Origin: Heptranchias perlo
Taxonomy: Eukaryota
Direction: 5' to 3'
Length of the DNA stretch: 64,000 bases
NCBI RefSeq assembly: GCF_035084215.1
Contig: NC_090355.1
Location: 27,094,001-27,158,000, forward strand
Part shown: one piece after another, positions 38,501-42,483 of the stretch
Position numbering within the stretch: position 1 is the first letter of the stretch
How the letters are laid out: each line of letters starts with the position of its first letter
Position numbers and translations under genes: made by a program
Notes under the pieces: model-generated
What the model saw: the letters and a program-made list of their open reading frames with translations, nothing else
Database searches by the model: none
What the model was told of the DNA's origin: nothing

Positions 38501-40925
38501 GTTTAATTTATAGTGAACATTGCCATTGAGGAATCTTTTTTTGTCAAAATGTTGATTTGTGAGGGTGCGGGGGGGTCATGCACCACATTGTTGCTCCAGA
38601 TCATTGAACCACAAAGTGATGGGTCACACATTAGCACCTGAGTGTCCATCTGTCACATCAGAAGGAGGGGCTTCTCCCAGATTGAGGAGAAATGGAAGCA
38701 GGTGGCGTAATGTAAAGTTAGGAACAGAGTAATATTGGAACAGGAGCAGGCCATTCAGCCCCTGGAGCCTGCTCCGCCATTTGATAAGATCATGGCTGAT
38801 CTGTGATCTAACTCCATATAACTGCCTTTGGCCCATATCCCTTAATACCTTTGGTTGCCAAAGAACTATCTATCTCGGGTTTAAACTTAGCAATTGAGGC
38901 GAGCATCAATTGCTGTTTGCGGAAGAGAGTTCCAAACTTCTACCACCCTTTGTATGTAGAAATATTTTCTAATCTCACTCCTGAAAGGTCTGGCTCTAAT
39001 TTTTAGACTGTGCCCCCTACTCCTAGAATCCCCAACCAGCGGAAATAGTTTATCTCTATCCACCCTATCCGTTCCCCTTAATATCTTATAAACTTCGATC
39101 AGATCACCCCTTAACCTTCAAAACTCTAGAGAATACAACCCCAATTTGTGTAATATCTCCTCGTAACTTAACCCTTGAAGTCTCGGTATCATTCTAGTAA
39201 ATCTACGCTGCACTCCCTCCAGGGCCAATATGTCCTTCCGAAGGTGCGGTGCCCAGAACTGCTCACAGTACTCCAGGTGCGGTCTAACCAGGGTTTTGTA
39301 TAGCTGCAGCATAACTTCTACCCCCTTGAACTCCAGTCCTCTAGATATAAAGGCCAGCATTCCATTAGCCTTATTGATTATTTTCTGCACCTGTTCATGA
39401 CACTTCAATGATCTATGTACCTGAACCCCTAAGTCCCTTTGGACATCCACTGTTTTTAACTTTTTACCATTTAGAAAGTACCCTGTTCTATCCTTTTTTG
39501 ATCCAAAGTGGATGACCTCACATTTGCCTACATTGAATTCCATTTGCCACAGTTTTGCCCATTCACCTAATCTATCAATATCCCTTTGTAATTTTATGTT
39601 TTCATCTACACTGCTTTCAATGCCACCAATCTTTGTGTCATTGGCAAACTTAGATATGAGACTTTCTATGCCTTCATCTAAGTCGTTAATAAATATTGTG
39701 AATAATTGAGGCCCCAAGACAGATCCTTGCGGGACTCCACTCGTCACATCCTGTCATTGTGAGTACCTACCCCATTATCCCTACTCTGTCTCCTTTCGCT
39801 CAGCCAACTTCCTAACCAAGTCCGTACTTTTCCCTCGATTCCATGGGCTTCTATCTTAGCTAATAGTCTCTTATGTGGGACCTTATCAAATGCCTTCTGG
39901 AAGTCCATATAAATAACATCCATTGACATTCCCCTATCCACTACTTTAGTCACCTCTTCAAAAAAATTCATTCAAGTTTGTCAGGCATGACCTACCTTTC
40001 ACAAATCCATGCTGGCTCTCTCTGGTTCTCGAGGTGTTCAGTCACCCTATCCTTAATTAGCATTTTCCCCACAACAGATGTTAGGCTAACTGGTCTATAA
40101 TTCCCTGGTTTCCCTCTCTCTCCTTTCTTAAAAAGCAGAGTGACGTGCAATTTTCCAATCTAGAGAGACAGTTCCTGAATCTAGAGAACTTTGCAGATGC
40201 CCTAACTATAATCTTTCAATGTGCTCACCTACTTCCTTTAAAACCCTGGGATGGAAACCATCTGGTCCTGGGGATTTGTCACTCTTTAGTACTATTATTT
40301 TCTTCGTTACTGTTGCTTTACTTATGTTAATTTTATTGAGTCCCTGTCCCCGATTCAATATTAGTTTTCTTGGGATTTCAGGAATGCTATCCTCTTTTTC
40401 TACTGTAAATACTGACGCAAAGTAATTATCCAACATGTCTGCTATTTCCCCAATGTCAATGACAATATCCCCACTTTCAGTTTTTAAGGGGCCAACACTG
40501 CTCCTGACCACCCTTTTTTTCCTAATATAACTATAAAAGTTCTTCGTATTAGTTTTGATATCCCTTGTAAGTTTCTTTTCGTACTCTCTTTTTGTAGCTC
40601 TTACTATCTGTTTTGTGACCCTTTGTTGATCTTTGTATCTTTCCCATTTGCCAGGATCTGTGCCATTTTTTGCCTTTTTGTATGCCCTTTCCTTATGTCT
40701 TATACTGTCCCTTACCTCTTTAGTTGTTCATGGCTGTTTTTTTTGGCAAGTAGTGTTCTTGCCCCTCAGGGGTATAAACCGATTCTGTATCACTTTAAAT
40801 GTTTCTTTAAACATTTCCCACTGATCATCAGTCATTTTACCCATTAACAGATTTGCCCAGTTTACTGTGGACAGTCTCTGTCTCATCCCATTGCAGTTGG
40901 CCTTACCCAAGTCTAGAATCTTAGC

Positions 40926-41134
40926 CATGATGTGGAGATGCCGGTGATGGACTGGGGTGGACAAATGTAAGGAATCTTACAACACCAGGTTATAGTCCAA
41001 CAGTTTTATTTGAAAATCACAAGCTTTCGGAGCTTACCTCCTTCATCGCCTGACGAAGGAGATAAGCTCCGAAAGCTTGTGATTTTCAAATAAAACTGTT
41101 GGACTATAACCTGGTGTTGTAAGATTCCTTACAT
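40926..41134. mobile_element. Penelope-like element terminal-repeat palindrome, copy 2
   Basis: 84-nt arms at 40965-41048 and 41051-41134 (3 mismatches), 39-nt tail at 40926-40964, perfect 12-bp TSD tagaatcttagc (40914-40925 / 41134-41145). Confidence 0.88.
41046..41082 (+). ncRNA. Minimal type I hammerhead ribozyme motif (PLE type)
   Basis: tcgc-CTGACGA-a-GGAG(ataag)CTCC-GAAA-gc-TT-gtga; helix II is conserved while its loop differs from copy 1. Confidence 0.65.
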
Positions 41135-42483
41135 AGAATCTTAGCAGCTGATTCACTTTTTTCCCTTTCAAACACTACCTTGAACTCTCATGTTATGATC
41201 GCTATTGGATAGATGTTCACGCACAGTCAAGCTGTTAATTAAATCTGGTTCATTACTCATTACTAAATCTAAAATTCATTCTGATTCTACCCATTTTGCT
41301 TCACTACCGGAATGTACGTTATGCTGTCTTATTTTGTTGATCTATTGTGTGAGACAATTTGAAAAATTGTTTAATTTTAAAAAGCTTGCATTCCCAGAGC
41401 AGAGTGTATCCAATTCAGAGGCAAAAGTGCATTTTTGCATTTTTGCACCTTAGAAAGTCACAATCAATTGATAAATCAAGATGTTGATAAGTGTTATCTC
41501 TAACTTTATTTCTGCAGCAGTAATAACTAATTAAACATGTTGATTAATTGTAAATGGTTGCAAGAAAATTGGTTGCATTAACTCACAGTAGAAAAATTCA
41601 CAGAACTCTGTAATTAATGTAGCCTGAGGCTATGTGACCTGGTGTATTGAGTAACTTTCTGAAGTGTTCTTTGGGATTAAAAGCTCATTATAGCCTGCAG
41701 CTACATTTCACACAGCTAATGCACAGAGCTATGTGTAATACAGTACATGTCAGAAGGGTTTGACAGGTTTCTAAAAGTTTTCCCTGCAGTAGGTGCAGCT
41801 GATTTCTAATAATGCCCTTTTTATATCACAGTACTGCTTCAAGTAGAAGCCATTGTACTGCACAATAATTTGGAGCTCCTGGCATCGTGAAATCCGCCTC
41901 CAGATTCCACAGCACTGATAGTGCAGACAAATAACTGCCCCTGCTGCTCACAGCACAGCAAGTTGCTGATTTTAACCATATCATTTGGGGAAGGGGCCAA
42001 ATAGAGGCAGGTTGCTTCCCTGGAGGCAGTGAGAGAAAGGCCAGTGATTCAGGAATATTTCCATTCCTCAATTTCTGAAAAACAACCATACACTAGATAA
42101 AACACTTGTCATTTTAAAATGTTTTGCCTTACAGTTAATCTAAAATAGTTTTTTAAGACCTGATGGTAATAATCATATGTGAGGAGGTTAAACACCTGAG
42201 ATGCTTTACAGTAACAGACTGACACAAGCTCCTATGACATGCAGTGAGATTGCTTTAGGTTTTTTTAAAAAAATTGTGGATCATCGTAAAGCAGAGATAA
42301 CTGCTTAATGTGGGCCTCTTTGATCAAAGTTACATTTACATACTGTATCAGAAAAAGGCAGCTTGTGAGTAAATGCCCACAATTTTTCCCAAGGTGGAGT
42401 GGTCACTACCTAGTGAATTTATCCATCTGGAAATACTTCAGGTCTCCCTGATATCTGTTCTGCTTCCTAATTCTTTGTTACAG

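Follow-up and report, generated by a model that had tools for sequence, protein, structure and literature searches.

In the accessible text of PMC3846280, the typical Penelope insert consists of direct pseudo-LTRs (pLTRs) and an adjoining inverted pLTR that overlaps a direct one, and inverted copies with a short tail, given as 30–40 bp in the published scheme, are treated as standard (PMC8557442, PMC8969392). In the rotifer element Pen2a a tail of 31 bp is carried by one pLTR and the TSDs are 9–10 bp long, and the junction palindromes, which are mostly head-to-head, were interpreted as the outcome of self-priming with an antisense template (PMC3846280). The formation of the tandem and inverted structures of Penelope is called undefined in PMC8557442. 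In the anole, the enzyme cuts the two target strands and extends each of them, reverse transcription having two start sites, one at either limit of the tail, and uncleaved RNA is its main substrate (PMC11167929); inverted copies are not treated in the accessible text of that paper, where the word "inverted" occurs once, in a methods sense. Hammerhead motifs of Penelope-like elements (PLEs) have an extra nucleotide before helix II, a G10.1-C11.1 pair, a palindromic 15.2-16.2 and a 4–5-bp helix I, and Schistosoma carries dual motifs on opposite strands, 100–700 bp apart (PMC4209133).

The window (the whole 64,000-nt stretch of Heptranchias perlo DNA that was analyzed) contains two insertions of a comparable kind. 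The second of them, copy 2, is a real insertion with a hairpin shape and a TSD. It is a TSD-flanked, head-to-head pair of one repeat that bears a hammerhead motif, with a tail on one member, and it is very probably an inverted Penelope pLTR pair. Its features are as follows.

40914–40925, + strand: left TSD, 12 bp, identical at 12/12 positions to 41134–41145
40926–40964, − strand: tail of the pLTR, 39 nt, on one arm only, with 37/37 identity to copy 1 over 40929–40965
40965–41048, − strand: left arm, a pLTR copy read on the − strand, its core without C3 and preceded by GG
41045–41049, + strand: 5′ strand of hammerhead helix I, pairing with 41079–41083, one G-U pair included
41045–41083, + strand: minimal type I hammerhead motif, from a descriptor scan
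41049–41050, + strand: CC apex, the second C being core position C3
41051–41134, + strand: right arm, the tail-less pLTR copy, which stops at the second preferred 3′ end of the family
41134–41145, + strand: right TSD, its first base (T) common to the end of the arm

The insert itself spans 40926–41134, and its 84-nt arms are complementary at 81/84 positions around the CC apex. The arm length and the apex agree with the initial annotation, from which the 39-nt extension on the left side and the mismatches at 41045 and 41048 were absent. The mismatches are located at 41037, in loop II, and at 41045 and 41048, both beside the apex, and the best hairpin has 80-nt arms around a 10-nt bubble. The 5′ strand of helix I overlaps the final 4 nt of the left arm and together with the core forms a self-complementary apex word, which is weakened by the mismatches at 41045 and 41048 while helix I stays paired. 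They could have arisen by later mutation, the flanking host sequence itself showing 2 near-private letters in ~114 nt, or could belong to a native version of helix I, as the pairing there is kept. An ATG closing the tail may be the putative ORF start of the element. Removal of the insert and one TSD, as a model of the empty site, re-established a LINE ORF2-like reading frame that is open on the − strand, and 31 contigs of host paralogues in sequencing run X9 pass 40924 into sequence like that of the right flank.

The other insertion, copy 1, has the same layout.

4056–4281, unstranded: whole of copy 1, within the 3′ end of a + strand LINE
4056–4068 and 4269–4281: TSD, identical at 12/13 positions
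4065–4100: tail, 32–36 nt, its first 4 nt common to the TSD
4101–4184 and 4187–4270: arms, complementary at 83/84 positions
4181–4219: hammerhead motif, from the descriptor scan

The target site of copy 1 is intact in a paralogue at 17583–17716. That the copies are separate insertions with different TSDs, as had been proposed, is borne out by these duplications (12/12 in copy 2, 12/13 in copy 1) and by the empty sites. The right arms of copies 1 and 2 differ at 3/84 positions, all of which are within loop II, and all three differences are mirrored in each left arm from its own right arm, so that the earlier claim that each copy mirrors its own loop also holds, with the one mismatch at 41037. 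Outside loop II and the apex only 1 position differs among the four arms. The fold-back junction, which had been described as identical, is in the same register in both copies and is not letter-identical, on account of the mismatches at 41045 and 41048. It is likely that the palindrome formed at each insertion, during retrotransposition and at a point fixed by sequence. Hairpins scoring at least 18 in the window were just these two copies (scores 80 and 76), the best score in each of eight first-order Markov sequences being 9–11, and no copy of the repeat was found in the window beyond the four arms. A 25-nt tail-like match at 31090–31114 was attributed to chance, as nhmmer did not recover it.

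Both insertions lie in LINE-derived sequence.

38902–40913, − strand: LINE ORF2 fragment hosting copy 2 (tblastn interval), with an RVT_1 match (E=1.7e-9) for 39121–39753
3665–4051, + strand: LINE hosting copy 1, ORF2-like

The host of copy 2 is 92.6% identical to a paralogue at 55057–56386, and we take it to be CR1-type from its motifs, the profile match showing RVT_1 alone. The initial annotation had placed both copies inside CR1s in a shared orientation. The hosts are indeed LINE ORF2-like and the copies point in the same direction, but the hosts are on opposite strands; as LINE-like sequence makes up 27% of the window by tblastn, or 34% with self-repeats added, neither residence in a LINE nor shared orientation was retained as a signal. 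Elsewhere in the window, a 636-aa stop-free frame at 7486–9393 (+) with an RVT_1 match (E=1.9e-39) is a young LINE ORF2 fragment, and LINE-like stretches at 10147–10434 and 35283–35570 share 99% identity across 288 nt, a sign that their LINE family was active recently. A 100-nt inverted repeat (19034–19133 and 19539–19638; 95% complementary, 405 nt apart) sits in LINE ORF2-like sequence that changes strand near 19200, and may represent an inversion plus duplication from insertion.

The assignment to Penelope is based on the inverted arrangement with its junction palindrome, the tail at one end in both copies (39 nt in copy 2, 32–36 nt in copy 1), the predicted minimal type I hammerhead motif and the TSDs, all of which agree with a pLTR unit. 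No ORF separates the arms, and none linked to them was found when 26 of the 35 stop-to-stop ORFs of at least 110 aa in the window were compared with Pfam, a scan which returned five RVT_1 matches, one of them under the curated cut-off, and no GIY-YIG; pattern scans for a linked ORF gave 0 in metagenome contigs, viral contigs and prokaryote genomes. A MITE or DNA-transposon palindrome was rejected because the 39-nt segment at the left end is missing from the right end and the ends are therefore not symmetric. Rotifer Pen2a_Av/Pen2_Av are similar in having head-to-head pLTRs, a junction palindrome and a 30–40-nt tail on one pLTR (PMC3846280; PMC8557442, PMC8969392), as well as a TSD of ~10 bp and insertion into other retroelements (PMC3846280). 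They differ in that our locus has no ORF and no second direct pLTR, in the length of the arms (84 nt here compared to 181–218 nt in the rotifer; PMC3846280), and in that the overlap here is the 8-nt word of helix I and core and the TSD is 12–13 bp.

The Anolis carolinensis Poseidon element PAc shares with this locus two preferred 3′ ends bounding the tail and a pLTR hammerhead kept uncleaved in inserted DNA, whereas its ORF begins at stem II and its start sites are 111–118 nt inside the ORF (PMC11167929); the sole candidate ATG here is the putative one at the end of the tail. The non-LTR retrozymes are likewise non-coding, derived from PLE pLTRs and equipped with a type I hammerhead, but are defined by two or more consecutive units placed head-to-tail, every one of which has a complete motif (bioRxiv 10.64898/2026.07.22.740005). 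A non-LTR retrozyme was rejected for this locus, as its units are head-to-head and, the left arm having no C3, only one motif is complete.

The motif is made up of a 5-bp helix I, CUGACGA, one extra A, a 4-bp helix II, a 5-nt loop and GAAA, with helix III replaced by a self-complementary AGCU, and in copy 2 it shows the traits listed for PLE hammerheads in PMC4209133. The minimal hammerheads of metazoan PLEs likewise have no helix III, a palindromic 15.2-16.2, an extra nucleotide before helix II, a short helix I and a variable loop II; they differ in that their helix II is 7–8 bp compared to 4 bp here, and that the two motifs here overlap at the core, with one lacking C3 (PMC4209133). The descriptor gave two matches in the window (4181–4219 and 41045–41083), both in this repeat family, and a mean of 0.04 and a maximum of 1 match in 100 Markov sequences, for a descriptor composed after the element had been seen. 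Rfam gave 0 matches in the window at gathering scores, and at E up to 10 around the locus no hammerhead was among the 15 matches, all of which were below the gathering score; the strongest of these, to generic microRNA-hairpin models, were rejected. Unconstrained folding of single arms did not return the hammerhead fold (z −1.2 to −2.1), and the whole copy 2 insert folds into one hairpin at −138 kcal/mol. In the left arm GG precedes TGACGA, hence its core lacks C3, a position at which change kills activity in the anole element (PMC11167929). A hairpin-hammerhead element, which had been suggested, is unlikely, since the left arm has no C3 and a hairpin of this stability would bury the motif.

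Cleavage of the copy 2 motif is predicted between 41078 and 41079, 28 nt from the apex, and the idea that the apex is the cleavage site was rejected as the coordinates disagree. The position of the apex is fixed because the 5′ strand of helix I (TCAC) followed by the core (CTGA) spells TCA-CC-TGA. Of the proposed fold-back at the ribozyme core, we retain the point fixed by sequence, but not a coincidence with the cleavage site, nor the folding back of a single cDNA, which predicts GG on the cDNA strand of the tailed arm, where both copies have CC. Four arm mismatches are too few to judge RNA editing as their origin, and it was set aside. Among family members the antisense strand at the apex word (41045–41056) reads CAG-GTGAGT, which the 5′ splice donor consensus resembles, and the sense strand resembles an initiator. 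One intron end of the Drosophila virilis Penelope is described as mapping at the start of helix I. One or other likeness may be the reason that copies begin at the apex word, or may be coincidence.

To characterize the repeat family, a query of one arm, the tail and the left flank (40800–41056) was compared with contigs from 4 of 23 sequencing runs. In run X1 17,945 contigs match, with a summed arm depth in the millions and a depth of 6–29 for the longest single pieces, which shows that the family is very high-copy, the depth itself giving no copy number. Among the tail-side loose ends listed, those of X1 fall at 40927 (93 contigs), 40963 (89), and 40964 (62) and have an agreement of 0.36–0.38, that is, varied flanks; those of X5 fall at 40926/40927 (13 and 14 contigs) and those of X13 at 40927 (56 contigs). 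The listed ends cluster at the tail end and at the arm end, which gives this family a pair of preferred 3′ ends, and both arms of copy 2 terminate at a member of that pair. On the apex side, the loose ends listed (41044, 53 contigs; 41032, 16; and in X5 41047, 3) run into GGTGA, the complement of TCACC, and then vary, with no fold-back. These non-palindromic continuations indicate that the apex word is native to the family, many copies of which appear to start near it without inverting. Depth in X1 drops from 131,373 in the preceding bin to 946.5 beyond the apex (41052–41056), and three opposite-strand joints are near, not exactly at, the apex (41011/41044, 41015/41047, and 40970/41043). Palindromic forms do occur elsewhere in the family and look rare, being scarce in contigs contrary to the 2/2 loci here; it is possible that short-read contigs lose hairpins and that this is the reason for the low depth past the apex.

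Many positions of the arm vary among family members in these contigs. Organism C (run X13) also carries the repeat, with other majority letters around 40974–40979 and a frequent 1-base deletion at 41013, and the lone arm mismatch of copy 1 is the majority variant there and makes up ~4% of X1 depth. The repeat was not seen in organism B in the contig comparison; in run X9 cover is on the host LINE only and zero on the repeat, which is not evidence of absence. A single X5 contig (depth 12) returns 121 nt, from 41047 to 40927, and is a head-to-tail junction that resembles Penelope partial tandems and retrozymes.

How the inverted pair arose can be addressed through the polarity of the apex. When snap-back of a cDNA at its TCAGGTGA end is computed, the product has GG in the strand of that same cDNA. 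In 2/2 copies GG lies in the strand of the tail-less arm, and CC in the cDNA strand of the tailed arm. The tailed cDNA was therefore not simply folded back, and a tail could not have been templated by the tail-less cDNA by itself. We infer that the apex polarity in both copies (n=2) is at odds with snap-back of a single cDNA and agrees with priming of the two nicked strands at the two initiation sites already known, a point that goes beyond what we found in print. The insert is very probably a Penelope-like pseudo-LTR that was placed without its ORF, and we give an even chance to its having been made by reverse transcription for which the two nicked strands of the target both served as primers. 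By analogy with the anole enzyme, an enzyme acting in trans would nick both strands ~12 bp apart and extend both, with reverse transcription starting at two sites ~39 nt apart on uncleaved pLTR RNA (PMC11167929). Under TPRT, priming at the tail end would yield a cDNA that is now the + strand of the left arm, and priming at the tail-less site one that is now the − strand of the right arm; the bottom strand would begin at the tail-less site and run to the helix I strand, while the top strand would begin at the tail end. The cDNA ends would then join via the self-complementary TCAGGTGA word, whether because the tail-less cDNA snaps back or because the two ends anneal to each other. Copying one RNA twice would give each insertion its own mirrored loop, and with a single RNA as template of both events, the upstream primer would arrive first and snap back, giving the observed polarity along with the mirrored loops. 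Two priming events, one per nicked strand, would explain the two ends as well as the TSD and the asymmetry of the tail.

This mechanism is proposed from two copies and the anole biochemistry, and the chances for and against two-strand priming of the insert seem to us balanced. At face value, the low depth past the apex and the rarity of palindromic apexes in contigs, compared to 2/2 loci here, speak against it. In LINE-1 twin priming both target strands prime reverse transcription and the cDNA ends join by microhomology to give an inversion, whose two parts do not overlap and whose internal site is variable. Here, in contrast, the two arms are copies of a single 84-nt stretch, with fixed end sites. 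In search listings of the open literature we found no application of twin priming to Penelope inversions. A broader and doubtful extension is that the inverted ends of Penelope arise by programmed twin priming: one enzyme dimer would prime both target strands on a single RNA, at the sites on either side of the tail, and the resulting cDNAs would be joined at TCAC-CTGA, a self-complementary word that helix I and the core of a hammerhead are bound to spell.

The same element could instead have been inverted by self-priming on one template, antisense in the published version, with a hairpin intermediate resolved by endonuclease to leave a tail on one side. Self-priming has been proposed for rotifer Penelope junction palindromes (PMC3846280) and endonuclease resolution is the source to which the tail is attributed in PMC8557442; the mirrored loops would be explained directly, and a short hairpin is possible from the apex word. 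However, as snap-back of a tailed cDNA gives GG and CC is observed, an extra trimming step would be needed, and later in vitro work ascribes the tail to two RT start sites (PMC11167929). We consider self-priming improbable, though a serious contender. The agreement of both copies in register, polarity and outer end, and the near identity of the four arms outside loop II and the apex (1 differing position), would also be expected of a pre-formed palindromic, non-autonomous master that was transcribed and retrotransposed whole, and rotifer inverted pLTRs can belong to the copied unit (PMC3846280). Such a scenario would require two masters with different mirrored loops. The listed family continuations beyond the apex are non-palindromic; transcription of a master would give a single 84-bp hairpin (−138 kcal/mol) with the motif buried, and the tail-less arm, which in this scenario would form the 5′ end of the copy, stops at a preferred 3′ end. 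A palindromic master is accordingly one we regard as distinctly unlikely.

Nearby inverted repeats can homogenize, and in a family polymorphic at many arm positions it is feasible that two different RNAs or copies supplied the arms, which gene conversion inside the palindrome later equalized. Unconverted mismatches nevertheless remain (1/84 and 3/84), with a frequency close to that of private changes in the flanking host sequence, and the apex and the two ends would be left unexplained, so we think gene conversion very unlikely. An assembly or library artefact, in the form of a fold-back chimera, could be suspected from the shallow contig depth beyond the apex and from the fact that no listed contig piece spans the locus, but is extremely improbable given two loci with different loops and different TSDs flanking both sides, the restored host frame, the empty paralogue of copy 1 and arms that are unlike each other.

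Two-strand priming, if correct, would concern a locus that as an object is ordinary: it is likely an ORF-less instance of a Penelope insertion layout already in print. Prior description of the structure, which the initial annotation had named, as a Dfam or Repbase entry, among its refutations, largely applies, the layout being published for Penelope-like elements (PMC3846280, PMC8557442, PMC8969392). The value of the locus is as test material, as its short units record both 3′ ends, the polarity of the apex and the loop variant of each arm, and the polarity rule is the sole part that deserves a wider test. Should such hairpins be common, they may also give rise to double-stranded RNA and leave gaps in assemblies. 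If programmed twin priming were true of Penelope, the ribozyme motif would double as a joining signal, and a fixed polarity, with GG on the cDNA strand of the tail-less arm, would be readable in thousands of genomic copies.
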